This document shows positions 21,838-61,875 of a stretch of 64,000 nucleotides of DNA, piece after piece. The stretch is taken from positions 62,001-126,000 of the forward strand of contig NZ_SBIV01000007.1 in NCBI RefSeq assembly GCF_004765795.1. The letters are read 5' to 3'. Numbering within the stretch: the first letter of the stretch is position 1; every line of letters begins with the position of its first letter. A program made the position numbers and the translations under genes. The notes under the pieces are model-generated. The model did not search any database. It worked only from the letters and a program-made list of their open reading frames with translations, and was not told where the DNA came from. The stretch is from Halorussus marinus. Lineage in GTDB: Archaea; Halobacteriota; Halobacteria; Halobacteriales; Haladaptataceae.

Positions 21838-22393
21838 TTAACCATCGGCCTGCCGGTGCCGGCGTACCTGCTCTGGATTCGGCACCCACGGATGGGCATC
21901 CCAGCAGTGGAGGGCGTGCTCTCGTGGTGTTTCGAACAGCGCCTCGCATGACCCACACACGTAGGTGGTTTCGGGCCAGCGTTCGGTGACGAACATCGCG
22001 GTCACCGTCGTTCTGACCGGGTCTGGGGCGGTCGCCCGCCGAACGTAGTTGTACCCGATCGTCGTCCGTCGACGAATAGCTGACCGCACCAGCCGTTCGG
22101 GCGATCTCGGTTGGCTTGTCCTCGGGGAGATACACCCAGCGAACGAAGTCGTCGACCGATTTCTTGGCTGAGGGCTGGAGGATGAACCATCGCTCGTGGT
22201 CATCTCGGAATAGGTAGCGTTCGGTCCCCCTGTTTTGGAGGTATATTGGGTCACCCCTGCCCGGTACGAGCCGTAGTCCGAGCGACGGCGATACCGGTTT
22301 CAAAAGCTGGTCGACGACCGATGGGCCGTCATCTGTCTGGCTGTCCGAATCAGCCTCCGCTACGAATTCATCGAGACTGGCATTCGTGGTCAC
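21838..22393 (-). pseudogene. Frameshifted C2H2 zinc-finger protein
   Basis: GTG 22393 has a GGAGGTG RBS and overlaps the upstream stop. Coding-like sequence changes frame near 22100 into YVCGSC...HALHCWDAH. Confidence 0.65.
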
Positions 22394-23055
22394 GGGGACC
22401 ACCTCCCGAGTGAGGCCTGTTCCCGGTCGGACTCAGCTGGAACTTCGCAGAGAAACCGCCACTTTGGCTGCTCTCGGATCTGCTTATCGGGGCGATTTCC
22501 CGCTTGGCCGGGGTCCGTTTTACCGGCACAGTGCCAGCCCTTGTCTCTGAGCGCTTTGATCATCGAGCCGTCGAAGTCGGCTCGCACGAACGTCAGCAGG
22601 AGCCGAACGCCTCGTCGCCGACCGTGCCGACGCACGAATCGTTCCATCGACCGGGCGAGGGCGGCAGAGGCGAGATTGGGGAAATCGACGCCGATGCAAA
22701 TCCGTGCTGCCTCGACGATTTCGTCACCCTCGAATCGCGTCCCGTCGTACTCCAGCGAGCGAATCAGCGGATAGCGCCACGTAATCGCACCTAGTAGCTG
22801 GTCCTGGTAACAGAGTCCGTGATGGACGAGATTCGTCCGGGGGATATCGTCCATATAGGAGTGATGCGCTTCGTAGATCGCGCCGGCGACGTGGCGCGGG
22901 ATCGATTCGATATGGACGCGCTCTGCGAACCCCAAACCGAGCGGCGCCGTGACCGGCTGGCCTTCCCGATGGATGGGACACGAACACCCATCGGGGGTAG
23001 GCGTATACTGGAAGCCGGTACTCCGTATTTGGTCTAGAGAGTGAGTTTCGGTCAC
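22390..23055 (-). CDS. Mom-like GNAT-fold DNA-modifying protein (putative)
   Basis: HHSY...HGL...LLGAITW...EAARIC...PNLASAAL...LLTF...DGSM...GW..G.T follows the motif order of the phage Mu Mom family. Confidence 0.6.
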   Translation of the reverse strand: MTETHSLDQIRSTGFQYTPTPDGCSCPIHREGQPVTAPLGLGFAERVHIESIPRHVAGAIYEAHHSYMDDIPRTNLVHHGLCYQDQLLGAITWRYPLIRSLEYDGTRFEGDEIVEAARICIGVDFPNLASAALARSMERFVRRHGRRRGVRLLLTFVRADFDGSMIKALRDKGWHCAGKTDPGQAGNRPDKQIREQPKWRFLCEVPAESDREQASLGRWSP

Positions 23056-23183
23056 GAGTCGGTGTCGTCGGTGCGCTCCTGTCGGTCGTTGTATCGCTCC
23101 AGTTCGCGCCCGATATTCTCGAGCGCCTCGACACCTCGTTCGAGGAGCTGGTGGGTGGCTCGCGCCAGTCGAAGCGTCTCCAT
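23052..23183 (-). CDS. 43-aa helical microprotein (not in ORF track)
   Basis: METLRLARATHQLLERGVEALENIGRELERYNDRQERTDDTDS*. Overlaps both neighbours (TGATG upstream, GTGA downstream). Confidence 0.7.
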   Translation of the reverse strand: METLRLARATHQLLERGVEALENIGRELERYNDRQERTDDTDS

Positions 23184-23692
23184 CAGTGCTTCCTCTCCGG
23201 GGGTTCGATGAGGTCGTTGCTCTCTTCGGCGAGTTCCCGGATTACCTGTTCCACGTCAGCCTCTTCGGCAACCGTCCGATGTGCGAGCGGGGCAGGATAT
23301 GCACGGTCGCCCTGACTGCAGAGCACGACCAGCCACTCGTCGCTTCCATCCCCGAGTACGATGTAGTGGTCGCGATCAGCGCGCTGGAAGACCCGCCGGT
23401 CCGGACGGGAGACGGTTCGCCAGTTCTCGGGGAGCGTCGGCGACGGCCGTCCGCCGTCGGGGAGGTCGACGACATCGTCGGGAGGGTCGCCATCGCGGCG
23501 TCGAGCTCCTCGCCGGTTCGGGGCCGCCTCGCGTGGGTCTCGACGAGGAATGTCGAACTTCTGCATCCACTTCGAGACCGTCTGTTGTGTACAGCCTAGT
23601 TCATCCGCGATCTTGACCGTGCTCAGCTCCTGTTTCCAGTAGAGTTCGTGGAGGAGCGATTCGTCTCGCCAGGGGTGATGTGCATCTGTCAT
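23183..23692 (-). CDS. HTH-domain protein
   Basis: WRDESLLHELYW...STVKIADELGCTQQTVSKWM. First gene of a coupled four-gene operon. Confidence 0.75.
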   Translation of the reverse strand: MTDAHHPWRDESLLHELYWKQELSTVKIADELGCTQQTVSKWMQKFDIPRRDPREAAPNRRGARRRDGDPPDDVVDLPDGGRPSPTLPENWRTVSRPDRRVFQRADRDHYIVLGDGSDEWLVVLCSQGDRAYPAPLAHRTVAEEADVEQVIRELAEESNDLIEPPERKH

Positions 23693-23834
23693 AGCTGTGT
23701 TCGAAAGTGTCCGTTAAGGGACTCCCGCCCCCTTCAAGGGGGAAATAAACCTCTCTGCCGCAGTAATGGCGGCTGTTCAAGCGGCTCTTTGACTCTCCAG
23801 AAAGCGTTTATCAGCCGCTTGAAAACAGGGAACT

Positions 23835-25433: not shown

Positions 25434-25697
25434 TTATGGTGGGAGGTGACGGTCGTAGATATTCCGGCGATGCCCAACCGCCTCAACGATCAGGACATCC
25501 TCATCCCGGTCCCAGGTGATGATCGCACGATAGTCGCCAGCACGAAGCTTGTAGTATGGATACCCGGTGAGCTTTTCGAGACGATGAGAGGTCCAGTCCT
25601 TTGCTTCGTCGAGTTTCTTCACCAACCGCTCTTGGGCTTCCGATTCGAGCCCCTCCAGCAAATCGAGTGCTTTTGGCGTCCACTCGACCTCAGTCAT
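25434..25697 (-). CDS. relE: RelE/ParE-family toxin
   Basis: EVEWTPKA...YKLRAGDYRAI...VGHRRNIY. Confidence 0.9.
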   Translation of the reverse strand: MTEVEWTPKALDLLEGLESEAQERLVKKLDEAKDWTSHRLEKLTGYPYYKLRAGDYRAIITWDRDEDVLIVEAVGHRRNIYDRHLPP

Positions 25698-25968
25698 CGA
25701 TGCCCAGCCGGTCCTTCACGTCGTCCTGCGACACCGTCTCGCCCTGCTCCCGCTGTTTGCGGCTCTCGGCCAGATGATCCAGGGCTTCCTCGGACAGCTG
25801 CGTTGGCGGATTGACGGCGTCCCGAAGCGCGTCGCGGATGAACTCGGATTTGTTCGCGTAGCCACGCTCCTCCCAGACGTCGTCGACCTGTGCCAGCAGC
25901 GACTGTGGCACGCGGACGTTGATCTTCTCCATCTCACCGTCGCCGCCGGCATCGCTGTCAGTGCTCAT
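25690..25968 (-). CDS. Ribbon-helix-helix antitoxin
   Basis: KINVRVP...YANKSEFIRDALR. Overlaps the toxin start. Confidence 0.88.
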   Translation of the reverse strand: MSTDSDAGGDGEMEKINVRVPQSLLAQVDDVWEERGYANKSEFIRDALRDAVNPPTQLSEEALDHLAESRKQREQGETVSQDDVKDRLGIDD

Positions 25969-25987: not shown

Positions 25988-26197
25988 TCACGTAAGTAGC
26001 TTCGGTTGGATACGCGAACTGTGGTTAACGAGGTCGAGACTGCGTGCGAGGGAGAGCCGCCGATGCTCCGAGAAGTTCAGGACGACGGCTTGGCCGTCGA
26101 CGCGGAAGCCGACGTATTCGACTGCGTCTCGGTGAGCCTGACCTGGCGATGCGACTGGAACCGATTCCGAACTGGCCATAGGTACATTCCCGTTCAT
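25988..26197 (-). pseudogene. Truncated DUF6166-like backbone gene
   Basis: EYVGFRVDG...RSLDLVNHS ends abruptly at the TA module. Preceded by a copy of the leader motif. Confidence 0.5.
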
Positions 26198-26399
26198 TCG
26201 TTGCTCGCGGGCGGTTCGGTGACCCCCGCACCCCTCTCGGGGGCAATAAACACCACCAGCCCAGAATTGTCCTTGAGTTACAACGGATCCGCTGATTTGC
26301 TCTACGAGGGTGGAGCTGCTCAGACCATTTCCTGTTGGAGTAATTCCTGTAAACACGGGAGTCCCGAACGTTAACTACCGGGGAAGCATAGGTCTATGT

Positions 26400-38161: not shown

Positions 38162-38229
38162 TGAACAATCACCTCGCAGGACGACCCACGACTGGATCGC
38201 CCCGCACCCCTCCCGGGGGACGAACAACG

Positions 38230-38610
38230 CTACTCGTCGATCAGGTCGGGGGAACTGAGGTCCGCGTACAGCACCTCACCGTCGCGGACGACGTACCGTT
38301 TCGCCAGCACGGGAAATCGGCACTTGGTAAATCCGGCTGTCTGGATGTCGAATTCTTCGTCCGGTTCGAGATACTCCGCGAGCGACCGGAGGAACTCGTG
38401 GGTGACGATGCCACCGTCGTAATCAGGAAGACCGTTCTCACGAGCCTCGTACACTTCGAAGCTGTCGTAGCCCCAGATGATCAGTTCGCCGTCGTCATCC
38501 ACCTCCCAGTTGAGCGTCCCGAAGCAGTGGTTCTCACAGAGTTCGCGGACTTCCTGTGGATCCGATACGAGCGCGCCGGTCGATGTCGTTGCGGCTTGGA
38601 GTGTTGCCAT
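38230..38610 (-). CDS. Hypothetical acidic protein
   Basis: 126 aa, leader motif upstream. Confidence 0.75.
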   Translation of the reverse strand: MATLQAATTSTGALVSDPQEVRELCENHCFGTLNWEVDDDGELIIWGYDSFEVYEARENGLPDYDGGIVTHEFLRSLAEYLEPDEEFDIQTAGFTKCRFPVLAKRYVVRDGEVLYADLSSPDLIDE

Positions 38611-38718
38611 GGGTTGTTCTCGGGAGCGGTCTCGCGCCCCCGCACCCCTTCAGGGGGGGCGAACAACCACTCACGCTGTGACGGCCACAGGACGCTGCGT
38701 TGCCGACGCGTCGTGCTG

Positions 38719-39051: not shown

Positions 39052-39936
39052 TTACTGACCGGCTTCGGGTTCGGGTCCATAGCGGGGCGTGCCGCACCGC
39101 TGACAGCCCCACATTGGCTGCCCGGTCCACTCGTCATCGGGGATAGCCTCGAATTCGCGGAATCGATGCTTAGTCTCCCGATCACACTCTCGACACTCGA
39201 GGTGGGTTCTGTTTGGACGCTCGCGTCGTGGCTGTTCGGTATCGGTCTTGTCAACGGATTCCTGGAGCGCAATCGCTGGCACCAGCCAGAGGTCGTCTGC
39301 GTCCTCACGTAGGCTTGCAAGACGATCTTCGGAGCGAACCCCACCCCCGGTTTCCTCGTAGAGAAACGTCGCGTGCTCACCGTCGTGACGGGGCTGCGTC
39401 GTCTCTGTCCACGGTGTCCGGTTGCGAGCGGACGCGAGCAGCTGATTACCACATTCAGACGTGACCCGTGTCGCCGAGGGGAGCGAGGGCCACTGATCAA
39501 CAAGCTGTGGGGCCGGTTCCTCGTCGAGATCGTAGATTAGCTTGCAGTCATCGACTACTGGGTCATCATCTGCCTTCGCGAGGAGGGTCGCCGCAGCAGA
39601 TCCCTTCCCGACGGCGGCGTAGAACGTTGACGCCTCGACGAGCAGCTGGATGACGTGGAGGAGAGTCCGTTCGGCATTCGCTGTGTCCTGGCCGTCGGCT
39701 CCTTCGAGATGGTTCGTGAGACAGAATCGGCACTTCGACTGGCCAGCGGGGATCGACGCTCCACAGGAAGCGCACTCGGTCTCATCTGCTGTCGGGCCAT
39801 CTGGATAGTCCGTGTCGACGCCACCAGAGCGTTGCCGCCGGGGCTCGCCACTACTACTGGCGAGTTGATCGTCGGGAACGTGGGTCGCTTCACCGAGCGG
39901 TCGGAGGGCTTCGTAGTCGGCGTACTGGTCGGTCAT
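39052..39936 (-). CDS. Hypothetical protein with two Zn-ribbon motifs
   Basis: CASC..CRFC and CREC..CQRC. Confidence 0.75.
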   Translation of the reverse strand: MTDQYADYEALRPLGEATHVPDDQLASSSGEPRRQRSGGVDTDYPDGPTADETECASCGASIPAGQSKCRFCLTNHLEGADGQDTANAERTLLHVIQLLVEASTFYAAVGKGSAAATLLAKADDDPVVDDCKLIYDLDEEPAPQLVDQWPSLPSATRVTSECGNQLLASARNRTPWTETTQPRHDGEHATFLYEETGGGVRSEDRLASLREDADDLWLVPAIALQESVDKTDTEQPRRERPNRTHLECRECDRETKHRFREFEAIPDDEWTGQPMWGCQRCGTPRYGPEPEAGQ

Positions 39937-40036
39937 AGAGTATTCTGGCCGTATCATGCTTCGTCTTCGGGTTTAAACAATAGCTCTCACATCAATCATC
40001 CTACAGGTACACAATCGAAAATCAGCAGTGTGGGCC

Positions 40037-40963
40037 TTAGACAGCCAGTTCGTCCAGCGCGTCGCGGTGGGTCCGCACGGTGACCACCGAGACGTTCGCA
40101 ACGTCAGCGACGTCCGATTGGGTGAGCCACCGTCCGTCTTCGCGTCCGGCCTTGTACAGACAGGCTGCGGCGAATCCGGATGGCCGAACCCCCGTGGTTG
40201 TTCCGGTCGATTCGGATGCTTCCGCCAACTGCCGAGCCCGCTGCCGGATCTGATCGGAGACGTCGAGCTCCGATGCCAACCGTGGAATGAACGCACTGGG
40301 CGTCACGGGTTGGGCCGGCAGGCCAAGTTCCGTGTTCAGCGTCGTGTATGCGTTCGTCACCCGCGATTGCTCGACGCGCGCCGACTCGGTGATGTCGTCG
40401 AGCGTTCGCGGCCGCCCGTTACACCGACACGCGCCGTAGACACTCGCGGCGGCCATCGCCTCGATCGACCGGCCCTGCAGGAGGTCCTCGTTCTGAGCGC
40501 TGCGGAAGAGCTGGCAGGCCTGGTCACGGATCGTCTCGGATAGTTCGAGCGCACTACTGATCCGGCGGACTTCACTAAGCCCGTGTGCGAGGTTGCGTTC
40601 GGCTTTCGACTGAAACCGCCCACGCGTCTGTTCACGGCGCATCCGAGCGAGCCGCCGTCGCTTCTGTCCTGAGAGTTCGTTCCCGTTCGCATCGGTCCCG
40701 TGGCCGATCTCCGTCGACAACCCACGATCGTGCCGCGCCGCTGTCAACGGAGCACCCGTGCGCTCCCGTTCGTCTTCGTCGAACCCTCGCCACTCTGGCC
40801 CGTGGTCGATCCGCTGCTCGTCGACGACGAGTCCACAGTCCTCGCAGACGGTTTCAACCGCGTTGGTTGTAACTTGCCCGTTACACTCGGGACACTGCGT
40901 AGCATTCGAGTCGGTCTGGACGTCTTCGTCGAACGTCGTTTCGTAGATCTCTCTGGTTGCCAT
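40037..40963 (-). CDS. tfb: Transcription initiation factor IIB
   Basis: CPEC..CEDCG Zn ribbon, IDHGPEWR, HDRGLST, GRSIE and two cyclin repeats. Confidence 0.95.
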   Translation of the reverse strand: MATREIYETTFDEDVQTDSNATQCPECNGQVTTNAVETVCEDCGLVVDEQRIDHGPEWRGFDEDERERTGAPLTAARHDRGLSTEIGHGTDANGNELSGQKRRRLARMRREQTRGRFQSKAERNLAHGLSEVRRISSALELSETIRDQACQLFRSAQNEDLLQGRSIEAMAAASVYGACRCNGRPRTLDDITESARVEQSRVTNAYTTLNTELGLPAQPVTPSAFIPRLASELDVSDQIRQRARQLAEASESTGTTTGVRPSGFAAACLYKAGREDGRWLTQSDVADVANVSVVTVRTHRDALDELAV

Positions 40964-41165
40964 GGATACTCACGAGGGGACTCACGCGGATCGCGTCTCT
41001 CGGAGTGCCCCTCACCCATCAGGGGCACATACACACCACACGGAACAGCGCTGACACTGGAGGGCTGCGGTGGCGAAAGCCCGGCCGCGAAACGGCGCGT
41101 GAGCGCCGTGAGCAGCCCGGACCGTGGAGGTGGTGGGAGGTGGCGGTGACCGCGTACACACCAGC

Positions 41166-41171
41166 AAAAAA
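41166..41171 (-). terminator. Oligo-T tract, possible archaeal terminator
   Basis: T6 on the minus strand about 17 nt after the SSB-like stop. Confidence 0.4.
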
Positions 41172-41187
41172 GGGGTGCGCCGACCGG

Positions 41188-42084
41188 CTATTCCCACCAC
41201 CGACCGCGCTCAGGGAACATAATGGTGCTCCACCCAGTGACAGCCAGTGAGACGCGCCCCTCGTACCAGTTCCGGGCTACCTTGTGAATACGCACCTGCT
41301 CGCCCTCTTCAATCCACGGCGCATCTGATTTCTCCCAGATCGTCACCTTCGTTTTTCCACTGTCGTCTGCGATCAGCCCGACTTGAGCGATGGCCGGCGA
41401 GTCCGCATCCCAGAGTACTTCGACTCGACCCTCGATGCTCACCTCTTTGCGATTGACGTCCTCGAGCTTCCCAATGGGGATCACCGTCCCAGGCGCCGTC
41501 TGCAACTCCTCGAACACCCCGACGACTGCACTCGTTAGGTCTTTCCCACCGACGACGGCTTCACCCAACCGCCGGCCAATCGCTGCTCGCGACCAGCCAT
41601 CCAGTTTTTCCGCCAACCGCATCGACTGCTTGTTCACCGCCGCCAACTGCTCCTGCGTGAGCTCTGCACGAGGATCGTCTCGCTCCGGGTCAGCCATCGG
41701 ATTCACGCTCGCTGCCCGCTTCTGGAACTTCACACGCCGCTCAGCGCTTCGCTTCGCTGCGATGTCTCGCGTCCGCTTCGCACGCCCCTCCTGCTGACTG
41801 AGTTCTGCCTGGGCACTGATGTGTTCCAACTCGGCCTCTCGTGCCTTGATGCGCTCTTCCTGTTCGAGGGTCTTCCCGAACAGGTGATCCGGGCCTTCCT
41901 CGACGCGCGCGTCTGGGTGGTTGGAATCGACTTTGGCCTGGACTTCCATGTCGACCGTCGCCCGGAACTCCGGGGTCTCGTCGACGACTTCGAAGCCATC
42001 CTCGTCGACCTCGCCTTCATCGTGTTTCTCGAAAGCCTGTTCATCGACCGAAACTACATCCGTGGTGACGTTGTTACTAGACAT
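41188..42084 (-). CDS. OB-fold ssDNA-binding (RPA/SSB-like) protein
   Basis: C-terminal VSIEGRV...QVGLIADDSG...VTIW...EGEQVRI OB fold, with a coiled-coil N-terminal half. Confidence 0.8.
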   Translation of the reverse strand: MSSNNVTTDVVSVDEQAFEKHDEGEVDEDGFEVVDETPEFRATVDMEVQAKVDSNHPDARVEEGPDHLFGKTLEQEERIKAREAELEHISAQAELSQQEGRAKRTRDIAAKRSAERRVKFQKRAASVNPMADPERDDPRAELTQEQLAAVNKQSMRLAEKLDGWSRAAIGRRLGEAVVGGKDLTSAVVGVFEELQTAPGTVIPIGKLEDVNRKEVSIEGRVEVLWDADSPAIAQVGLIADDSGKTKVTIWEKSDAPWIEEGEQVRIHKVARNWYEGRVSLAVTGWSTIMFPERGRWWE

Positions 42085-42476
42085 TGGAATCTACCCTGAT
42101 TCCTGAAGGCGCTCAGCGCCCGACACCGCGATGCTACAACATCGCGGATTTCCTCGACGACAACGACCGACAGACTCGTCTGCGCGCTCTCGCTCGCGCC
42201 TTCGCGAGCGCCCCTTGGGGCGCGAGCGAGAGCGCGCCATAGGGAGGCCACTCAACCAGCACCGCGCGCCGACCCGCCCGGAGCGAGCGGCCAGCGGGAT
42301 ATGCCCGCTCGTGTCCGGCCCGATGTGCGGGTCCGTGTCCAGGGCGACTGTCGCCGAGAACGCGCGCCGCGGTGTGGCGCGCGACAGCGCAGGCGGCACC
42401 AAGCGCTGGAACGCGAAAGCCCGCAAGGGGCGCAACCGACGGGGATACCCGCTGGCGCCGAGGGCACATGCATTTT
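42070..42476 (-). repeat. Structured leader, copy 1 (inverted relative to 56986-57283)
   Basis: Perfect 19-bp stem (42182-42200 / 42219-42237) and 8-bp hairpin (42126-42147). Long near-identical blocks are shared with copy 2. Confidence 0.9.
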
Positions 42477-47712: not shown

Positions 47713-50700
47713 CTATTCTGATTTGAGTGCAAGCCCCTCGTAGTATCGAACAGAGTCGCCGTTCTCATTGTCTGTGTTCCGCTCGAACGTGACATAGTTC
47801 CCGAGGCGACGGCCGAACCAGGGTTTGCTATCTGTATCAATCCCGTGAGCCTCAGCCCACTGCTCGTAGATTTCGTAGACATCTCCGGCGGCTACTCTGC
47901 TTTCCGGATCTTCGACGAGGTGTGTCTCTGCGAATCGCTCAACAACCGCCTCTGGATCCTCAGCAATATCGTCAATCGATGGCTGAGGCGCCTGCTGAAT
48001 ATGGTCTGCCTGTTCTCCTGTCGTTTCTTCGCACCCACTTGTGGTGACGGTATCGAGTAAGGTGTCCATCGAGTACGTACCGTCAGTATCGTACACGACC
48101 GGGTTGCCTTCTTCAGGGAGAATGACGATAGCGTACGACGTGGGGCTATAATCGGGTGTCTGGAGTTCGGCTTCGGGGACGAATGGCTTCTTGATACGCA
48201 CCCAGTCGCCCTCGAACGCCGATTTCGTCTCGTAGATGTGTTGCTCACCGTGCTCGTATACGACGTACTCGTCGGCAGCGTGGTCGTAGCTGTAGATAGC
48301 TGGAACACGATCTTTCGAGAGTTTTCCAAGCGACTCGAGGCGGATATGTTCCGTCCCGCTGGCATCACGAAGGACGATCTCGTCGCCATCACGCTGCCAG
48401 ATGTTCTGAGTCCCGTTCTCGTCGTCGGTCGCCGGTCGGACGGCCGTCACTCCACCTTCTTCGGTCGCTCCACCGTTGAACGTGAGATTCGAGTCAGTCG
48501 TGTAGAACCGTGTCTCACCATTCTGGAGTGTGCGAACGGGTGGTGTGAGAATGCCGTCGACACGCTCGGCCCACTCAGTTTCGTCGTTTCCTGGTCGAAC
48601 GACAAACAGCGGGATATCCCCTGCTTCTTGGGCTTTCCGGAGATTCGTGAGCACCTTCGCGGGATTCTCGGGTGTCGTCGTTTCGACTTCGATGGCGAAT
48701 CGGTCGGAAACGTCGGGGTGGCTCGCCCTCGCGTCAGGTTTCTCGCTGCCATCCTGTGCGAGGATCGAGACGGTGAAACCGAGTGCAGTGAGTTCTTCTT
48801 CGATCTGAAGGAGTGCTGCGTCGTGGGCACTCCCACCGGCGGCCTGCACGCCACCAGTATCGGGTGTCGCGACCTTTTCTCCGGCGTCAGTGAGCCGGAT
48901 GCGGAGCTCGTCGGCGTCGATATCGACGGTCGTATCGAGGTATCGTGATCGTTCGCGAATGTCCGCGAGTGCATCATACGATGGCGGCTCGGCGTCGACG
49001 TCGTCAAAGAGGCGTCTGAGTTCGTCGTCAACCGCTTCAACGGCCACCCAACCGTTCTCCTCACGGCATCCTTCTCGAAGCTGGAGACTCCGGACCACCG
49101 TCGCAATCGCGACGTCCAGGTCGTCGCTCGCGATATCGAGCACTCCGTGTCCGTCGGTCGGTGTTCTCGTTGTTGAGGCGTCTGTTGCAGCCGGCACGCC
49201 GTGTTCCTCGCTGATGTTCTCGTGCATCGAGGAGAGTGTCTCAGTGAACTGCTCCTCTTCACGCTCTGTGAGCGGAGATTCGCTCTCGGGGTGGCCCGGT
49301 GGAATCGGGAGTGGTTCGAGACTGAACGGATACGGCCCCGTTTCACCGAACGTCGGGCTTGGCAGGCTGGCGATCCACTCCCCTCGTGGCAACGAACGAA
49401 TCCGATTGGCGAAATCCGCGGGGTCCATCTCTTCGTGGGCCATCGCTCGCGCCAGTTCCCGGTCGACGTTGATTTTCCCGATGAGTGAACTGCCGATGTT
49501 GTTCAGAGCATTCAGGTAGATCTTCCGCCCACCTTCAGCCTCCATCTGTTCGGGGAACTGCATCGACAGGCCAACAGAGAGCCGGAATCCCCGGCCTTTC
49601 TCGAGGAGATCATTCATGATGTCGGAGACTACGACCGACGCTGCCTCGTCGACGAGCAAGTTCACGACGTAGTCGTCCGAGTGCTGGGAGAGGGCCTGTT
49701 TGCGGTCCTTGAGAGCTGCATCGAGATTGGTCAGGATCACACCAGTCATGATCCGGGCAGCGTCGTCGCGGAGATCTCCGAGGTCGAAGAGGATGACCGT
49801 ATCCTCGTCGAGGACATCCCGAAAGTCGAACTGGTTCTCGGTATTGTTGAAGATCTGCCGCAGGTGCGTATCCTGTGAAATGTACGCAAGGCGGTTTCCG
49901 ACACCCCCCATCACGTTCGCGAAGGTGTTCGAATCTAACTGGAGTTGCCGTCGAATCGTCCGCGTGACTTCCTCGTCGCTCGACCGTGGGGCGTCGCCGA
50001 TGTTCTCGTTCGGTGGCCCGGCCTCCCAGAGCTGGTCGACGACGTGTTCGAGCTGTCGGTGGGCAAAGTAATCCGTCGACGCTCGGTAGAGCCCGTTCTC
50101 ACGCCCGTATTCCTCGTCGAACAGTGCCTTGATGAGTGTCTTGATGAGAGTTGGAGCCACAGTCGCCCGCTCGTAGCGGTCGGTTCCCATCACGAGCTTC
50201 AAAATCTCTTCGTAGTGGTCGGCCTTCCGTTGGACGGCGTCTTCGCGGCGCCGTCCGCTCTCCATCGACGGTTCGAGATCGAAAAACGAGAACCCGGGGA
50301 GGACGTCCGGAATCGGGAAGTGGACGACGTTCTCTTCGAGGTCGGTCATTCCGAACCGACGCGCGTGAGCCCGCATGTAATTCTGGGCCATATCGTCGTT
50401 TTTCGGGATGATGAGGATCGTCGGCCCCTCGGTGTTGTCGTACAGCGACAGCATATCGTTGATGAGGGCTTTCGACTTCCCAGAGCCGGTTGTTCCGAAC
50501 CGGCCGTAATGAGTGGGCAGCAGTCCGGGTGGAATGTGTGTCGGCTCGTCTTCGGCCTCGCCGGTGTCGTCGAGGGCATACCCGATTGCCATCCCGTCTC
50601 GGAACTCACTCATGAGGTCTTGGTGCGGACGGGGCAACGGATTCCGACTCTGCTGTTCCGCACGCGTCCCCCGTGTCCCCTCGACAGTAAGCTGTTCCGA

Positions 50701-52008
50701 GGAGGGGACGAGTACGAAGTGCGCGAGTTCTCGGCCGCTCAGGACGAACTCCGGTCGGGTCTTTCCACGGCCAGTCGTGATCTCACGATCCAAGAGCCGC
50801 TGCAGCGCCGCTCGGGCGTTTCGTTCTTTCGTGGCTGCCCGGAAGCCGCTGTTGCGTACCCGTTCGGCCGCAACCTGGTAGTACGGTCCATCAAGCGGGT
50901 CGAATACCGGGACAAGTGATTGCATCCGCTCATCGAGTTCACCGCGACCGTCGTCACCGGATGGAATCCCGATTGCTCGGACATTCGCAGTGAACGACCG
51001 CTTCGGATTTTTCGCCTCAATCGCCTCGACACGTTTTGCAACCGCATCGCTCAGCTGGTTTCTGTCCCGGCTCTCCGACTGATCGTCGAGTTCGAAAAGG
51101 GAGCCAATAATTTCCTGAGCGAGTGTGTCTCGTCCGTCGATGACGTCCTCCTTGCGAAGGTCGGCATCGGACTGCCAGCTCTCGCGTCGTTGGAAGACGA
51201 CCTGGAACGCTACTGGTGCTGTCGCCTCCATCAGATGGTCGACGAGTGACGCGAGCGCACCTCCTGGCTGATCGACGGCTGGGAGTTCTGCTTCGTCGTC
51301 GGCAGTAACTGGCAAGAGTGAGGTCATCCAGTCTTGCTTCCGAGTCGCCGACCCTTGCCACCGTACGCCGAGTGGGGAGACGGATTCGGTCGCTGGCCGT
51401 GCGAGTATCGTCCCCTCCGATGTTACCGTTGGTTTGGCAAGCGTGGTGAGTGGCTCATCCTCAGGAATCGCATCTGGTGGGGCGAGTTCGAGGGCAGTAT
51501 CACCAATCTCGATGAAGTGGTCGGCAGACTGGTCACCGACTGTTCCTCCATCCGCGACTGATTCGGCGTCTGCTGGCCCCGCTTGTTTGTTGTCGTCAGT
51601 GCCACGTTCGTATTGCTCGTCAGGGCCGAACTCATACCTGAGCCCGCCCGAGTTATACTGCTCGACGAATGTCTCTCGGTCGAATTCGACAGGCTGCACG
51701 AGTCGGGATGCGACGTCGACCTCGGTACGCTCGATGTCGAACGTCTCGGGATAGACCGACTGGAGCCGCTTCTCAAGGGTATCTAGATGGTCGTCGGCAC
51801 CGTAGTAGAATTCGACGGGGTCATCTGCCCCCTCGCTCAGCGCGAGAAATTCGAATTGTATCGGTGTGTCGCTATGTAGCGGATTGAGTTTGTCAACTAG
51901 CCCTGTCGAGTCCGTTGAGGTCAGTTTGTGGAGGCTCTCCAGTGCCTGCGGCAGACGCTCCGGATTGAGGCGTTCGGAGGTTGGCGTCACGCGAAGATAC
52001 TCACGCAT
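47713..52008 (-). CDS. VirD4/TraD-like ATPase fused to putative wHTH + PD-(D/E)XK nuclease and a C-terminal D5/P4-like wHTH
   Basis: Walker A GTTGSGKS, Walker B LLVDEA, KGRGF...QFPEQ and LPRGE. ATG 52008 has a GGAGGTG RBS and overlaps the virB4 3' end. Confidence 0.8.
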   Translation of the reverse strand: MREYLRVTPTSERLNPERLPQALESLHKLTSTDSTGLVDKLNPLHSDTPIQFEFLALSEGADDPVEFYYGADDHLDTLEKRLQSVYPETFDIERTEVDVASRLVQPVEFDRETFVEQYNSGGLRYEFGPDEQYERGTDDNKQAGPADAESVADGGTVGDQSADHFIEIGDTALELAPPDAIPEDEPLTTLAKPTVTSEGTILARPATESVSPLGVRWQGSATRKQDWMTSLLPVTADDEAELPAVDQPGGALASLVDHLMEATAPVAFQVVFQRRESWQSDADLRKEDVIDGRDTLAQEIIGSLFELDDQSESRDRNQLSDAVAKRVEAIEAKNPKRSFTANVRAIGIPSGDDGRGELDERMQSLVPVFDPLDGPYYQVAAERVRNSGFRAATKERNARAALQRLLDREITTGRGKTRPEFVLSGRELAHFVLVPSSEQLTVEGTRGTRAEQQSRNPLPRPHQDLMSEFRDGMAIGYALDDTGEAEDEPTHIPPGLLPTHYGRFGTTGSGKSKALINDMLSLYDNTEGPTILIIPKNDDMAQNYMRAHARRFGMTDLEENVVHFPIPDVLPGFSFFDLEPSMESGRRREDAVQRKADHYEEILKLVMGTDRYERATVAPTLIKTLIKALFDEEYGRENGLYRASTDYFAHRQLEHVVDQLWEAGPPNENIGDAPRSSDEEVTRTIRRQLQLDSNTFANVMGGVGNRLAYISQDTHLRQIFNNTENQFDFRDVLDEDTVILFDLGDLRDDAARIMTGVILTNLDAALKDRKQALSQHSDDYVVNLLVDEAASVVVSDIMNDLLEKGRGFRLSVGLSMQFPEQMEAEGGRKIYLNALNNIGSSLIGKINVDRELARAMAHEEMDPADFANRIRSLPRGEWIASLPSPTFGETGPYPFSLEPLPIPPGHPESESPLTEREEEQFTETLSSMHENISEEHGVPAATDASTTRTPTDGHGVLDIASDDLDVAIATVVRSLQLREGCREENGWVAVEAVDDELRRLFDDVDAEPPSYDALADIRERSRYLDTTVDIDADELRIRLTDAGEKVATPDTGGVQAAGGSAHDAALLQIEEELTALGFTVSILAQDGSEKPDARASHPDVSDRFAIEVETTTPENPAKVLTNLRKAQEAGDIPLFVVRPGNDETEWAERVDGILTPPVRTLQNGETRFYTTDSNLTFNGGATEEGGVTAVRPATDDENGTQNIWQRDGDEIVLRDASGTEHIRLESLGKLSKDRVPAIYSYDHAADEYVVYEHGEQHIYETKSAFEGDWVRIKKPFVPEAELQTPDYSPTSYAIVILPEEGNPVVYDTDGTYSMDTLLDTVTTSGCEETTGEQADHIQQAPQPSIDDIAEDPEAVVERFAETHLVEDPESRVAAGDVYEIYEQWAEAHGIDTDSKPWFGRRLGNYVTFERNTDNENGDSVRYYEGLALKSE

Positions 52009-54208
52009 CGTCGCCACCTCCCGTTTCGCCGCCATCAGTCTCTGTTGGCGTCCGCTCAGATTGGAGTTGTCCGTTGTCAGTCCTTCGGCGTTCAATCTCG
52101 TCTTGGAACGCCTGCACGTCCGCGTCCACGGCGTTCTCACCAGTCCCGGGGAGTGAGGATCGCCGTTGCTCGGTTGGCTCGAAGTCGATGACTTGCTTCT
52201 CTTTGGGCATCGCTTTGACCTGGATGCCGCGCCACTCGCCGTCGACGCCCACCAGCGCCTCGGAGAAGCCGGCGTCCTCGTTGCCCGGCACGGCGTCCTG
52301 GACGAACCGCATCTGTGCGTAGTTCAGGCCGAACTCGTCGGCCCACTCCTCGTCCATCCCGTCGAGGCGGTGGAACTGCTTGACCGCACACTGGTCCAGA
52401 ATCGCCTCGGATTCGGCGTGCTCGAAGAACTCGTCGACCGTCTGCGTGACCAGCCGGATCGAGAGGTCGTGATGCCGGTGATGGCGGAATACCGTTTCGA
52501 GGAACGCCAGGCTCGCGGCGTCCTGCATAATGTAGCGCGCCTCGTCGATGTAGAACACGACCTCCTTCTCCGAGACTTTCGCCCGCTCATACACCAGCGA
52601 GATCAGGAGCTGCATCGTCAGCGCCGTGCTGCTGTCGACGCTGCCCTCCTGCTGAGCGAGGTCGAGGTAGATGACCTTCTCGTCCCGGATGTCGAAGTCG
52701 GACTCTTGGCCGAGGTTGGCGTGCCGCCCGTCGTCCTCGAAGGGGCGGAGCTGGTCGAGGAGCCACGTCGCGTCCTCCTTGATCTTCCCCGCCTCCTCGT
52801 CGGACCGGACGACGAACTCCTCGGGGTCGTTGACCATCTCCTCGAAGACGTCCATCATATCCTGAATCGTCGGGCTCGGGTTGCCGTGCGTGGAGATGTC
52901 GTCGGTAATCCCGTTGCGCTTGTACGCCCGCTTGAGCCCGAGTTCCAGCGTCGTCCGGCGGTCACCCAGCGAGATGCCCCGCAGCGCGAAGAAGTTCGTG
53001 AGGAAGCTCATCGCGTCGTCGAGCTTCTCGTTGAATGGGCTCGCGTCCTCGCCCATCGCCCGCTGGACATGCTCGGGCGTCTCGCGGATCTCCAGGGGGT
53101 TCAGCCCGAGCGTCCCGCCGACAGTGATGCGTTTGGCGTCGAGGGCTTCGGCGACGCCGGCCCAGTTGTTCAGCGGTTCGAGGATGATGCCGATACGGTC
53201 CTTGCTCTGCTCGATCGACCGGATGAAGTTCTGCTTCGAACTGAACGACTTCCCCGACCCCGTGTCGCCGACGGTGAACATCGCGTAGCCGTTGTCCCGC
53301 GCGAACGGGTCGATGACCACGGGACTCTGGTTGTCCTTGTGAATCCCGAATTCGACGCCGCCCTCCTCGAGGATCGTCGCGTTGTGCGGCGAAGACAGTA
53401 ACGCGCCGACGGCGCCGCCGAGCGCAATCGACGTCCGCCCGAACTCGTTGTCGCCGATGGGCGCGGCGGACTGGAGGGCGAGGTCCTGCCGGCAGATCGC
53501 CGTTTTCGGCGTGAGGTTCGCCGGATCGTCGCGGAGTGCGCTCTTGACCTTCTGGACGGCGTCCCTGAGTTCCTCCTTCTCGTCGGCTCTGACCGTGATG
53601 AACATCCCCTGGTCGAAGACATTCGCGCCGTTCTCGACGGCCTTGTACGTCGCTGCGGCCTCGTTGGCACGTTCCTGTAGGTAGGCACTCCGGACGCTCT
53701 GTTCGAGGTCAGCGTCCACCTGGAGGTCGTCAGCGATGTCCTGCAGTTCGTTCCGGGCCCGCTCCTGGTTCTTCGGCGTGATGTGGGCCGTCAGGTCGAA
53801 CTGCACGTCGGTCATCTCGAAGAGCTCGGAGAGGTAGCCGTCGTTGGGGTAGTCCGGGTAGTCAGCGATGTACAGCGTCGTCGTCCACTGCTCGCCGACC
53901 CGTGCCGCGCGCGTCTCCCACTCGATCGCCGCCGGCGCCGTCACCATCTTGTGTGACTCAGCGATGTCGTCGAGGAGTTGGCGTTCGGCCGCGCCCTGTT
54001 CGATGGTCTCCTCGTCGAGCAAATCCGAGAACTCGACCTCTTCCTCGTCGTCTTCGGTGTACCAGTCCCAGAGGAGTTTCCCGCCGATCCCGACCAGTAC
54101 CGCGAGCAGGATGTAGAGAGCCGCACCTTCCGCTGAGGTTGGGTTCGTGAGCCACTCCGTGAGCTGGCCGACAGCTCCGCTGTCCGTCTGGAGGATGAGG
54201 TTACGCAT
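52001..54208 (-). CDS. virB4: VirB4-like T4SS ATPase
   Basis: GDTGSGKS, LNPLE, FYIDEA, RH...LVTQ and an N-terminal TM segment. Start is 54208 or 54217. Confidence 0.9.
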   Translation of the reverse strand: MRNLILQTDSGAVGQLTEWLTNPTSAEGAALYILLAVLVGIGGKLLWDWYTEDDEEEVEFSDLLDEETIEQGAAERQLLDDIAESHKMVTAPAAIEWETRAARVGEQWTTTLYIADYPDYPNDGYLSELFEMTDVQFDLTAHITPKNQERARNELQDIADDLQVDADLEQSVRSAYLQERANEAAATYKAVENGANVFDQGMFITVRADEKEELRDAVQKVKSALRDDPANLTPKTAICRQDLALQSAAPIGDNEFGRTSIALGGAVGALLSSPHNATILEEGGVEFGIHKDNQSPVVIDPFARDNGYAMFTVGDTGSGKSFSSKQNFIRSIEQSKDRIGIILEPLNNWAGVAEALDAKRITVGGTLGLNPLEIRETPEHVQRAMGEDASPFNEKLDDAMSFLTNFFALRGISLGDRRTTLELGLKRAYKRNGITDDISTHGNPSPTIQDMMDVFEEMVNDPEEFVVRSDEEAGKIKEDATWLLDQLRPFEDDGRHANLGQESDFDIRDEKVIYLDLAQQEGSVDSSTALTMQLLISLVYERAKVSEKEVVFYIDEARYIMQDAASLAFLETVFRHHRHHDLSIRLVTQTVDEFFEHAESEAILDQCAVKQFHRLDGMDEEWADEFGLNYAQMRFVQDAVPGNEDAGFSEALVGVDGEWRGIQVKAMPKEKQVIDFEPTEQRRSSLPGTGENAVDADVQAFQDEIERRRTDNGQLQSERTPTETDGGETGGGDDA

Positions 54209-55322
54209 CGTGGTCATCCTCCCGGCGCGAATGGCCGATGATGGGTCGTTCGCGAACGACGCTCTCTGCGTCGTCGTACTCGTGTTCGCGGCCGTTCCAG
54301 AAGTCCATATTCAACACGAAGAGTTCGACCGTGCTGAGCCGGCGTGCGGACCAGCCAGACGCCTGCTGGATGAACTCCGAGCGCACGTCGTTGACCCGGC
54401 TATCCAGCTTCTCGAACATCTGTGCGCGGCGCTCGACGTCGGTGAGGTCCTCGCGGCGGGTGACGAACGGGTTGAACAGGAACCCGATGACGGGGAACTG
54501 CGTCAGCTTCTCGGCCGGCGTCCCCTCGTCTCGGAAGCGGTCGTAGACCTCCAGCGGGGTGACTTGGACGCCGATGTAGTACCGCATCTGCTGGATGCCC
54601 CGTTCGCGCATCTCCTTCGGCCGGGTCTCTCGGTATTCCTCGAGGAGTTCTCGGAAGATGGGGTTTTCTTTGACGTCCTCGTCGTTCAGGCGGTCTTCGA
54701 TGTTCTCGGTGATCTGTTCGACTGGGAACGAGCGGGTCGTGGCGTGGAGTTTGAGCTTCGAGTCCAGTTCCTTGTTGGCGAACTCCTCGCCGGCGTCCTG
54801 GAGCTGTGCCCAGTCGTCGGACATCGCGAAGTCCATGTTGCCGGGGTCGATCTCGATGAACGCCTCCATCGTGCCGTCCGCGCGCTGGATCGCGCCAGCG
54901 CCCGGCCACGCCCGTTCGATGTTCGTGAGGACCTGTGTCCGCTCGTCGGGCTTGAACGGCGTGTAGTTCGCGAGCCCGCCCTCGTTGCGCTCTGTCTCGT
55001 TGGTACTACTGTCGGCCTCCTCCGGGGCACTGAACGTGATCTGGGGGCGCTTGACGTAGCGATAGACGTCTTTCGTCCACGTCCACGCGTTGAGGTGGTC
55101 GGGCGAGACGTAGACGATCGCGACGCCGAACCCGAAGCCACCTGCGACGAACGGCAGGGCGAGTGATTCGATGCCGGTGAGGCCAGCGATGAACAGGCCG
55201 ACGATCGGGAAAGCGATCAGGACGCTGACGTCGCCTTCCTCGATGTTGAGGTAGGGGATGCGACTCTCCTCACCGAACTGGTCCATGATGCGCCGTGCGG
55301 CTGCGTCTTCGTCGATGGCCAT
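54201..55322 (-). CDS. Membrane-anchored T4SS component (PrgI/VirB3-position gene)
   Basis: Two N-terminal TMs. Overlaps the virB4 start. The call rests largely on position. Confidence 0.65.
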   Translation of the reverse strand: MAIDEDAAARRIMDQFGEESRIPYLNIEEGDVSVLIAFPIVGLFIAGLTGIESLALPFVAGGFGFGVAIVYVSPDHLNAWTWTKDVYRYVKRPQITFSAPEEADSSTNETERNEGGLANYTPFKPDERTQVLTNIERAWPGAGAIQRADGTMEAFIEIDPGNMDFAMSDDWAQLQDAGEEFANKELDSKLKLHATTRSFPVEQITENIEDRLNDEDVKENPIFRELLEEYRETRPKEMRERGIQQMRYYIGVQVTPLEVYDRFRDEGTPAEKLTQFPVIGFLFNPFVTRREDLTDVERRAQMFEKLDSRVNDVRSEFIQQASGWSARRLSTVELFVLNMDFWNGREHEYDDAESVVRERPIIGHSRREDDHDA

Positions 55323-56985: not shown

Positions 56986-57283
56986 AAATTGAATGTGCCC
57001 TCGACGCCAGCGGGAAAGCGCGGGGGGTTGCGCGGCGTGGCTGCTCACCCCCCACGCTTTCTCCGCTGGTCGCTCGCTCCGGGCGGGTCGGCGCGCGGCG
57101 CTGGTTGTATCCCTCCGTGCGGGCGCGCTCTCGCTCGCGCCCGGTAGGGCGCTCGCGAAGGCGCGAGCGAGAGCGCGCAGACGGCTCTGTCGGTCGTGAC
57201 GTCGAGGAAATCCCCGTGCTGGAACACGGGGTGTCGGGCGCTGTGGTGAGCGCCTTCGGGTTACCGCAATGTCGAGTAACAAC
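56986..57283 (+). repeat. Structured leader, copy 2
   Basis: Same 19-bp stem (57123-57141 / 57160-57178) and a hairpin at 57212-57231. Ends in ATG-Ser-Ser-Asn-Asn like copy 1. Confidence 0.9.
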
Positions 57284-59850: not shown

Positions 59851-61875
59851 CTACGTGAGGTTCCTAATCCTCCCAAGCATCCTCCTAAACTCTTCCACAT
59901 CGCTCTCGGTGACTTCCCGATTATTTGTCAATCTATCTTGGATCTCACGAGCCACCATAACTTTGTCCAAATCACCTCTATTTCGGTCCTCTAAAGCGTT
60001 CTCTACTCGATTTACTATTTTCCGACCTTTGTATTCCCGATCATCAATAGACCATACTTCGTCCTCAATTCCAATCTCGATTGGATCGAAATCATCGAAC
60101 TGCTCCTGATAAGCAGCGTTGACACTATCTATGTAGAATTCTGGGTCAAACAGATCCTCTATTTCGATGTTGAAATTCCGCTCATCATCGTCTTTTTCGA
60201 GTAGAACAATACGCTCTGGATTGATTTCATGATGCTGTTCTTCGATCTCCTGCTCTACCTCTTTGCCCTTGCTATCATTATCTAATAGCAACACGTATGA
60301 GAACTCCTCTGAAGCCACCCATTTCGCTGCTTGAACCATATTATTCCCACCATTTGTTGGCATAATCGTGATCTCATCCCACGATAAGATGTCTTCTTCA
60401 AGATGATCTCGATAATAGTTTGCCAGACCCGTCAGAATATCGTAGTCACTAACACCCTCTACGAGTATTTTCCTCTTCGAGACAAAAGGTGAATCACCTA
60501 ACCCTATCCCCAGAGCATTTCTGAGAGGTTCCAATGTCATCGCATCTGACTTGTGAAAGTCTTCTGTGACGACTGTCCCATCGTCTTCCCGATCTTCTAC
60601 AACCCGGATTCTATTCGGGTACTCTTTCCTGATGAGAAACGGGGAGTGAGACGAATATATGATCTGTGCGGACTCAGACAGTTGTTCAATCGCTCTGAGC
60701 CAGTTCTTTTTCCCTTCTGGATGAAGGAATACCGCTGGATCGTCGAGGAGGATTATCTGGTTAGGTGATTCTTCGTTATCCGTTTCGGCCCTCAAATTAA
60801 TGTAAAACGACAAGAACCACTGGAATCCCTTGCTACGTTCAGATGGTCGTTTGAGAGAACGGCTTACGTCCTGCTCCTCTCCATCTTCAGAATCTAAATG
60901 AGCAAGGGCGGTATCCTTGATACCTACTGTAAACCGATTATTCCGATAGTTGATTTCTACATCGACTTCTTTCTGCTCCCACAGCTCGTTTACCTGACCA
61001 CGTATCGTACCACTTGCCGATTCAAGGACTCGGTTCTGTTCATGGAGCCCCAAATTATCGAAATTCTCATAATCAAGCTCAACTATTCCTAATAGATTTC
61101 TAAACGTTCGATGTTCGTCAGAATCAACTGAATTCACTTGTACATCGTCACTAATCGTATCGAACCCGCCGTGATAGACTATTGGGGGGAGTAGATATCG
61201 AGGATCATTTTCTTCATCAATATGTTTGATGACATTATTGAGATCTTCAATTTCAGTACGCCATTTCTCCTTAGCATCTCTGATATCATCATTTTCTGCG
61301 GGTATATTTTCTAAAGCGTCCAGAAGATTACGTACCCAAGACTCCACCTGAGATAAGTCGGGGTTTTCGTTATTTCGTATTCTGTTTGCAGGGTTCTTTA
61401 TATTATTATCAAAGTGATTGCGGTAATTCCCTGAGTTCTCATTCCGAAGTGAATTCAGCTCTTGCCACATTTCCTCTACCGTCTCTTGAGCATTCTTTAC
61501 GGGATCAACATACTCACCGAGTTCCCTACCCTGCGGCGTGGAGAGTTCCCGAGTTCCGTCTGAATATTTTGTCGCTATTATTTCGTCGCCTTGTTCGAGG
61601 TCTCGAAACTCAGAAAATCTATCAGCGGCTTCACCACTAAGTTCAATCCTTAGACTTGTTATTGGGGCGTGATGATTCTCGGAATACTCCTTTCCGTCAT
61701 TCAGTTCACGATCTTGGATTTCTCGGTCCTGGTCAAAGTACCGTATTGCTTCTAAGAAGGATGTCTTTCCACTCTCGTTTCGACCTAGAAGTGTTGTTAT
61801 ATCGTCTTCAATCGGAACCCATTCTGTATCCACGATTGATTTATAATTCTGAATTCGAACCTGAGTGAGACGCAT
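59851..61875 (-). CDS. OLD-family ATP-dependent nuclease (ABC ATPase + TOPRIM)
   Basis: GRNESGKT, SKG, LLDDP..LHP and SHSP; TOPRIM LVEGVSD...GG...LLDND. Visibly AT-rich. Confidence 0.88.
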   Translation of the reverse strand: MRLTQVRIQNYKSIVDTEWVPIEDDITTLLGRNESGKTSFLEAIRYFDQDREIQDRELNDGKEYSENHHAPITSLRIELSGEAADRFSEFRDLEQGDEIIATKYSDGTRELSTPQGRELGEYVDPVKNAQETVEEMWQELNSLRNENSGNYRNHFDNNIKNPANRIRNNENPDLSQVESWVRNLLDALENIPAENDDIRDAKEKWRTEIEDLNNVIKHIDEENDPRYLLPPIVYHGGFDTISDDVQVNSVDSDEHRTFRNLLGIVELDYENFDNLGLHEQNRVLESASGTIRGQVNELWEQKEVDVEINYRNNRFTVGIKDTALAHLDSEDGEEQDVSRSLKRPSERSKGFQWFLSFYINLRAETDNEESPNQIILLDDPAVFLHPEGKKNWLRAIEQLSESAQIIYSSHSPFLIRKEYPNRIRVVEDREDDGTVVTEDFHKSDAMTLEPLRNALGIGLGDSPFVSKRKILVEGVSDYDILTGLANYYRDHLEEDILSWDEITIMPTNGGNNMVQAAKWVASEEFSYVLLLDNDSKGKEVEQEIEEQHHEINPERIVLLEKDDDERNFNIEIEDLFDPEFYIDSVNAAYQEQFDDFDPIEIGIEDEVWSIDDREYKGRKIVNRVENALEDRNRGDLDKVMVAREIQDRLTNNREVTESDVEEFRRMLGRIRNLT

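Follow-up and report, generated by a model that had tools for sequence, protein, structure and literature searches.

A divergent Mom-like GNAT gene in a leader-associated gene array of haloarchaeal plasmids

The window analysed here, a stretch of 64,000 nucleotides from Halorussus marinus (contig C7), carries on its minus strand four tightly overlapping frames at 23183-23692, 23052-23183, 22390-23055 and one starting at 22393, joined by a TGATG at 23183 and by a GTGA at 23052-23055 and again at 22390-22393. Before them on the same strand lies a leader (23693..23749) composed of a T-run, a CCCC-n-GGGG hairpin, the GCGGG arm of a second hairpin and a short spacer leading to the ATG. A preliminary description of this DNA had named the block a four-gene operon, with the leader motif in front, encoding an HTH protein, a 43-aa peptide, a 221-aa protein with Mom-like motifs and a C2H2 finger protein; the frames, the overlaps and the leader are all present in the sequence, but two of the genes as named do not stand, the first being a deletion chimera and the fourth frameshifted. 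The second gene, for an acidic 43-aa peptide of no family (23052..23183, minus strand), is intact, as is the third, for the 221-aa Mom-like GNAT protein (22390..23055, minus strand), even as two of its neighbours are damaged. The host holds a further plasmid with the full array (C14:14907-33156), in which a second copy of the operon is intact and encodes a Mom-like protein 92% identical to that of the window.

Gene 1 (23183..23692, minus strand, 169 aa), which had been read as a plain HTH protein, is a fusion of the start of an HTH-HNH endonuclease with the tail of a DUF6166-domain protein. Its residues 1-61 are the HTH of the endonuclease gene, whose intact form matches HNH_3 at E 7.7e-12, and residues 72-169, the last 98, are the C-terminal domain of the DUF6166-domain protein; some 590 bp were lost and a 1-nt deletion restored the frame, so that the HNH and DUF6166 domains are both gone. 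The junction recurs in another locus (L002) and in contigs of all four of four DNA runs. The leader copy at 23693..23749 arrived with the HTH-HNH gene, and the original leader survives with a 5' remnant (first 60 codons) of the DUF6166 gene at 25988..26250 on the minus strand, separated from the operon by inserted genes. Elsewhere, the HTH-HNH gene together with its own leader copy has been inserted before the DUF6166 gene at L001:5420-5905 and in six other loci, bringing a replaced 5' end of the DUF6166 gene, a pattern that looks like homing into a leader-controlled array. At 25434-25968 of the window a toxin/antitoxin pair and a lipoprotein-like gene have been inserted into the DUF6166 gene; the pair, which we take to be a RelE-like toxin and a ribbon-helix-helix antitoxin, occurs in several loci as well.

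Gene 4 (21838..22393, minus strand) does not encode the intact C2H2 finger protein that had been proposed: the frame starting at the last GTGA overlap specifies 196 aa with no Zn finger, and the CxxC...H...H finger lies in a different frame that ends at 21838. An intact gene 4 is a single frame of 177-181 aa in 22 of the 32 homologous loci examined. The gene in the window is a mosaic of two alleles joined 13 nt out of register near 22100, its 5' half 96-100% like L001 and its 3' half 74-88% like L027/L034, the closest to it. This junction was absent from the first 52 loci and had no match in JGI metagenome contigs, and one of 101 loci, in the genome L082 from another family, has it exactly. 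The exact match therefore identifies a real allele and rules out an assembly error at the join, as does the finding that the host's C14 copy is a different allele. Neither the intact Zn-finger protein, nor the 43-aa peptide, nor the neighbour found in the second clade described below received a Pfam, PHROG or NCBIfam name.

The 221-aa protein matches the Mom-like family phrog_1384 at E 6.9e-8 and PF25680 at E 3.7e-5, the latter with 23.9 bits against a curated Pfam cut-off of 27.1 bits; PF25680 matches 18 of 21 diverse family members at E<=0.01 (best 1.2e-11), and the Atlas assigns Mom clusters at 0.95. These profile matches, together with our alignments, confirm the Mom-like order of motifs noted earlier. 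An AlphaFold model of the protein (pLDDT 83.5) retrieves Mu Mom, 8BV8, as the top solved structure in Foldseek (E 4.7e-9; next GNAT, 1.0e-6) and in VIA-align among 48,161 chains (Z 15.7, 162 aligned, rmsd 3.5; next 14.1, ordinary GNATs), with a TM-score to 8BV8 of only 0.57. Searches of the PDB by sequence reached 8BV8 only at E 0.69 with the A1 query and not at all with the single 221-aa protein. The model thus predicts a Mom-like GNAT fold, as the preliminary description had supposed, and Mu Mom is its nearest solved structure.

The gene is under purifying selection, with dN/dS near 0.1 (0.07-0.24 in 19 of the 24 alleles compared, the other five being too close or saturated). R118 and S130 are invariant in 58 of 58 sequences; a set of 21 sequences with 22-48% identity keeps H65, Y67, R118, N127, G163, A168, G173 and K198 without exception. 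The protein has a pI of 7.8, against 4.2-5.0 for most neighbour clusters, and is unusually basic for a halophile; the plasmid proteins also carry an extra N-terminal CxCPIH motif. The Mom-like gene is broken in 3 of the 32 loci, including that of Haloferax volcanii pHV4. In the latter (L051, pHV4 47744-48402) it is frameshifted and followed by ISHvo2, providing a natural null background.

Mu Mom moves glycine from a charged tRNA to adenine N6 in a Gly-tRNA-dependent synthesis of 6-NcmdA, and it depends on H58, Y59, R111, S124, D149, R151, Y159 and an HTH-like insertion that is modelled as DNA-binding and whose deletion kills the enzyme (PMC13219725). We aligned Mu Mom and 10 other phage Moms with 9 members of the haloarchaeal group, adding a pairwise check. 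The plasmid protein and Mu Mom are both basic and have in common the GNAT fold, H58, Y59 (within an H-x-Y motif), R111, N121, S124, G156 and A161. R111, described as the Mom-specific catalytic residue (PMC13219725), corresponds to R118, S124 corresponds to S130, and H58-Y59 correspond to H65 and Y67, with one inserted residue in all 9 group members; the R111 equivalent and the H-x-Y motif are features of Mom-type enzymes rather than of GNATs in general (PMC7261163). D149 is present in 10 of 10 bacterial-phage Moms and, in register, in 0 of the 9 group members, the plasmid proteins having R158; 7 of the 9 have an Asp two residues past this register, which may or may not stand in for it. Y159 is Tyr in 10 of 10 phage Moms and in 2 of the 9, with I, V or L in the plasmid proteins (I166 in the query). 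R151 is absent from the query and from all 10 other phage Moms, and is therefore no family marker. Where Mu Mom has the HTH-like insertion (175-209), the group has a loop of about 19 residues joining the flanking strands, modelled with one short helix at 192-195 and bearing a conserved basic motif of its own, N187-R188...K198 (N-R...I...K). Mu Mom differs in having D149 and Y159 in register, the insertion, Com and a phage setting, whereas the plasmid protein lacks these, resides in an archaeal host and adds CxCPIH. Because three Mu features failed (D149, Y159 and the insertion), we stop short of calling it a Mom enzyme proper; judged from alignment and model, it looks like a divergent subfamily of common stock with Mom. 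The residues of the active homologues A and B of PMC13219725 could bear on all three differences.

Homologous loci fall into two clades that differ in their neighbours. The short form (31 loci) combines the Mom-like gene with genes for a DUF6166 protein, the 43-aa peptide, the Zn-finger protein (24/31) and a DUF932-like protein (27/31; assigned by the Atlas at 0.96). The DUF6166-domain protein opens the operon in 30 of the 31, a count that includes the L002 chimera, and the 43-aa peptide gene adjoins the Mom-like gene in 30 of the 31 and in 0 of the 17 loci of the long form. In the latter, mostly from Haloarcula and Halorientalis, none of the three neighbours, DUF6166 protein, 43-aa peptide or Zn-finger protein, occurs in any of the 17 loci. 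Both clades share, nearly always on the Mom strand, an ArdC-like gene (17/31 and 8/17), a DUF6610 gene (17/31 and 8/17), a gene for a 73-aa protein (25/31 and 12/17), an N6-methylase gene (1/31 and 6/17) and TFB. Over all loci, ArdC-like, DUF932-like and N6-methylase genes lie on the Mom strand in 25, 28 and 7 of the 48, respectively, and such genes nearby agree with the anti-defence-like setting suggested for the block; on the host's C7 the ArdC-like gene is 4 kb left of the window, with about 22 kb of cargo between it and the operon. DUF6610 and DUF6884 genes (L005:13431-14432, L043:6396-7259), which accompany both Mom-like clades or the long one, and whose phage relatives are of unknown function, are candidates for further DNA-related anti-defence functions.

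The block had also been compared with the com-mom control module of phage Mu, in which Com is a zinc-finger translational activator of mom. The likeness lies in a Zn-finger gene that overlaps the Mom or Mom-like gene, but Com is a 62-aa CxxC...CxxC protein encoded upstream, whereas the plasmid protein has about 180 aa with the C2H2 finger at its end and is encoded downstream of the enzyme. The Zn-finger protein shows no similarity to Mu Com (BLASTP E 15), and its gene is missing or broken in 10 of the 32 loci, frameshifted in the window and without a counterpart in 17 of 17 long-form loci, which together do not sustain the idea of four genes forming one such module. The term four-gene module is overstated: the three neighbouring genes are best read as passengers on the enzyme's transcript, particular to one clade and not dedicated to its control, and the conserved unit is the array.

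The leader, about 57 nt long, folds into the CCCC-n-GGGG hairpin and a second hairpin. We counted 113 matches in 863 kb of loci, 113 of 113 on the Mom strand, whereas the six largest host contigs have 0-0.4 matches per 100 kb (C8 has 3 in 201 kb). In 27 copies, pairing within hairpin 2 is stronger with the copy's own 3' arm (-15.5 kcal/mol) than after arm swapping (-11.9 kcal/mol), with relatedness of the copies uncontrolled, and an ATG follows the leader core by 25-46 nt in 30 of 36 distinct copies. Rfam has no match in the window, leader included. In 29 of 29 short-form loci the Mom-like gene has the leader 0.7-1.3 kb upstream of it; for L010 the loose match that lies nearest is inside a gene, and the real leader is at 871. 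In the long-form loci a shortened leader, 36 nt before the Mom-like ATG in L030-L045, abuts the ATG in 14 of 17, a count anchored on GAGG(G)ATG, chosen after eight examples had been seen, where a stricter pattern gave 1 of 17; its predicted stem covers the Shine-Dalgarno-like GGGTGAGAGG. A stem over a Shine-Dalgarno-like sequence recalls the translational control of Mu mom. As the leader lies upstream in both clades and the three neighbours belong to the short form only, the association with the leader is more widely conserved than the operon itself. The leader may act as a promoter, an operator or an RNA element. Bacterial parallels include the Frpo promoters (PMC11541004) and repressor-controlled establishment operons (PMC6294495), though a leader of about 57 nt with two small hairpins is unlike Frpo as presented in PMC11541004.

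The Mom-like gene is present in 53 of 401 Halobacteria genomes and 28 of 91 genera, chiefly on plasmids that also encode VirB4, and a profile search of 1.84 billion representatives returned only 69 matches, so the group is compact. Copies that are 98-100% identical occur in Salarchaeum, Halorubellus, Halorubrum, Halolamina, Halobaculum, Haloarchaeobius, Haloplanus, Halarchaeum, Halosegnis and Natrinema, and 26 plasmid records of the 70-640 kb range match the gene; pHFX5 matches it too. A VirB4 homologue is found in 238 of the 401 genomes, by comparison with which the Mom-like gene is accessory; by hand count, 49 of the 53 genomes that carry the Mom-like gene have a VirB4 homologue, against 189 of the 348 others, with related genomes in these counts not being independent. 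Among the 150 of 359 matches listed, at least 14 contigs of plasmid size carry the two genes together, in every case on the same strand. In the window, a VirB4-like ATPase gene (52001-54217, minus strand, E 4e-39) and a coupling-protein-like gene (47713-52140, minus strand; a weak TraD match, with relatives annotated as conjugal transfer protein) lie 25-30 kb upstream of the Mom-like gene on the same strand. These genes, with the near-identical copies in many genera, support the earlier view that the block is carried on a transferable element. Long inverted repeats at 42163-42476 and 56986-57197, with arms of 76, 45 and 29 nt that are 90-96% complementary and contain internal palindromes, flank a 15-kb block of VirB4-like, coupling-like and primase-like genes and are possible recombination or transfer sites.

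Among viruses, HRTV-4 gp19 (AGM11113, annotated as hypothetical) was the only phage match among 50,697 records, and its gene stands two genes before that of the large terminase. It is 35% identical over 78% of the query (TM 0.71/0.86), with the same H-x-Y motif and short loop and with D149 and Y159 likewise missing; it differs from the plasmid proteins in being viral and unannotated and in lacking the CxCPIH extension. An IMG/VR scan, run without the diverse alignment, returned no locus, leaving HRTV-4 as the sole viral context. In BFVD, R4TMA3, a 275-aa protein of Haloarcula hispanica tailed virus 1 with no sequence similarity by tblastn, matches the model at E 6.2e-7 and is possibly, on this structural comparison, a second haloviral Mom-like lineage.

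The contig of the window joins a VirB4/VirD4-like cluster, SSB, TFIIB, ArdC-like and Orc1/Cdc6 genes on one replicon. It shares this backbone with the pHdsl9-3-like haloarchaeal plasmids (PMC13532300), to which ZntA cargo and gene exchange across families add a further likeness; the main text and two searchable supplements of that work make no mention of Mom, DUF932, DUF6166 or the leader, and the Mom-like gene is accessory to the backbone, not core. At the head of the conserved one-strand array stand a plasmid TFB gene and an RPA/SSB-like gene (40037..42084, minus strand), and two further leader copies (38170..38666, minus strand; T-runs at 38227 and 38666) precede conserved backbone genes. 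The backbone gene at 39052-39957 scores above the cut-off for NCBIfam 'biosurfactant protein 1' (MBSP1), with a weaker match on another conserved array gene, and the name probably hides a plasmid function. The leading or establishment regions of bacterial conjugative plasmids (PMC11541004), including the p576 operons (PMC6294495), likewise combine anti-restriction and methylase genes on one strand, repeated upstream elements and genes downstream of an SSB-like gene (PMC11541004, PMC6294495); the main text of PMC11541004 mentions neither Mom nor archaea. No oriT or relaxase was mapped at the haloarchaeal loci, in which respect they differ from the bacterial regions, and since strand bias is what they offer, a 'first-entering region' is used here as an analogy only.

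We give about an even chance to the proposal that the 221-aa protein is an acyl/aminoacyl transferase for DNA bases, derived from Mom and acting transiently while a plasmid establishes itself, drawing on the fold, the closest relative, H65/Y67/R118/N127/S130, purifying selection, the plasmid location, the neighbours and the leader in both clades. As a divergent GNAT of the Mom type, encoded in the one-strand array that VirB4 plasmids of haloarchaea conserve, it would attach the acyl or aminoacyl moiety to a base in DNA, with adenine N6 the probable site, and the donor, by analogy with Mu, would be a charged tRNA. Its expression would be transient after transfer and controlled by the leader, and the newly arrived plasmid, thus marked, would resist the restriction enzymes of the recipient. 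An intact operon lies on pNG600 of Haloarcula marismortui ATCC 43049, and the methylome of this strain bears on the proposal: the SMRT results given in PMC6606915 list only two m4C motifs and no adenine motif, and any modification is therefore not constitutive. This excludes a common constitutive adenine mark in the pNG600 carrier and is compatible with tight control of the kind seen in Mu or with another substrate. RNA runs yielded scattered contigs only.

Another substrate is the core of the alternative that survives best, although we think it unlikely: a Mom-derived GNAT with a changed acceptor, still serving establishment, that acylates a recipient protein (a defence protein, for example) or a tRNA. 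GNATs switch substrate readily (PMC13219725), the insertion modelled for DNA binding in Mu is absent, D149 and Y159 differ and the carrier's methylome lists no adenine motif (PMC6606915), all of which such a switch would accommodate. Against it, R118 and H-x-Y are Mom-type rather than general GNAT features (PMC7261163), Mom is the closest structure in both Foldseek and VIA-align, the short loop has its own conserved basic N187-R188...K198 motif and the haloviral homologue HRTV-4 gp19 is encoded near the terminase. DNA modification might, improbably, be the protective half of a restriction or exclusion pair of the plasmid's own, the partner being a nearby Mrr-domain nuclease; Mom domains are reported to occur fused to restriction-fold nucleases in jumbo phages (PMC7824862), and an Mrr_cat nuclease gene (E 1.7e-26) lies on the opposite strand within 10 kb in 24 of 31 short-form loci. 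However, that nuclease gene is found in 0 of 17 long-form loci and is absent beside the window's copy. Mrr-type enzymes, moreover, usually cut modified DNA, which counts against such a pair. A self-protecting mark should also be constitutive, and none is listed for the pNG600 carrier (PMC6606915). Least probable of all is a Mom descendant that has lost catalysis and serves to bind nucleic acid or to regulate: even though D149, Y159 and the insertion are lost, neighbours are frequently damaged and the gene is dispensable in most VirB4 plasmids, its eight invariant residues across 21 diverse sequences form an active-site pattern and dN/dS is about 0.1.

Building on the transient base-modifying transferase, we advance a broader proposal only tentatively: haloarchaeal conjugative plasmids and haloviruses may share an archaeal Mom branch whose re-built active site (without D149, Y159 or the HTH-like insertion) modifies a base in DNA, hence possibly with a new base or donor; once transferred, the plasmids may turn it on by way of the repeated leader with two hairpins, which would define an archaeal establishment regulon. 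Mom-type hypermodification has so far been characterised in phage Mu; in literature listings and in passages of PMC13219725, PMC11541004 and PMC13532300 we found no paper that places it on archaeal plasmids, and a 2013 survey of DNA-modification enzymes (doi 10.1093/nar/gkt573) may list archaeal Mom-like proteins. With copies 98-100% identical in many haloarchaeal genera, such a gene would go some way to explaining how these plasmids get past restriction barriers. An enzyme able to work in the absence of Mu's insertion and of two Mu active-site residues would put the proposed mechanism to the test or lead to a new modified base. The window itself holds an OLD-like ATPase-TOPRIM gene in a low-GC patch at 59851-61875, and a type I restriction-modification system lies just to its right (L054:340-6107).
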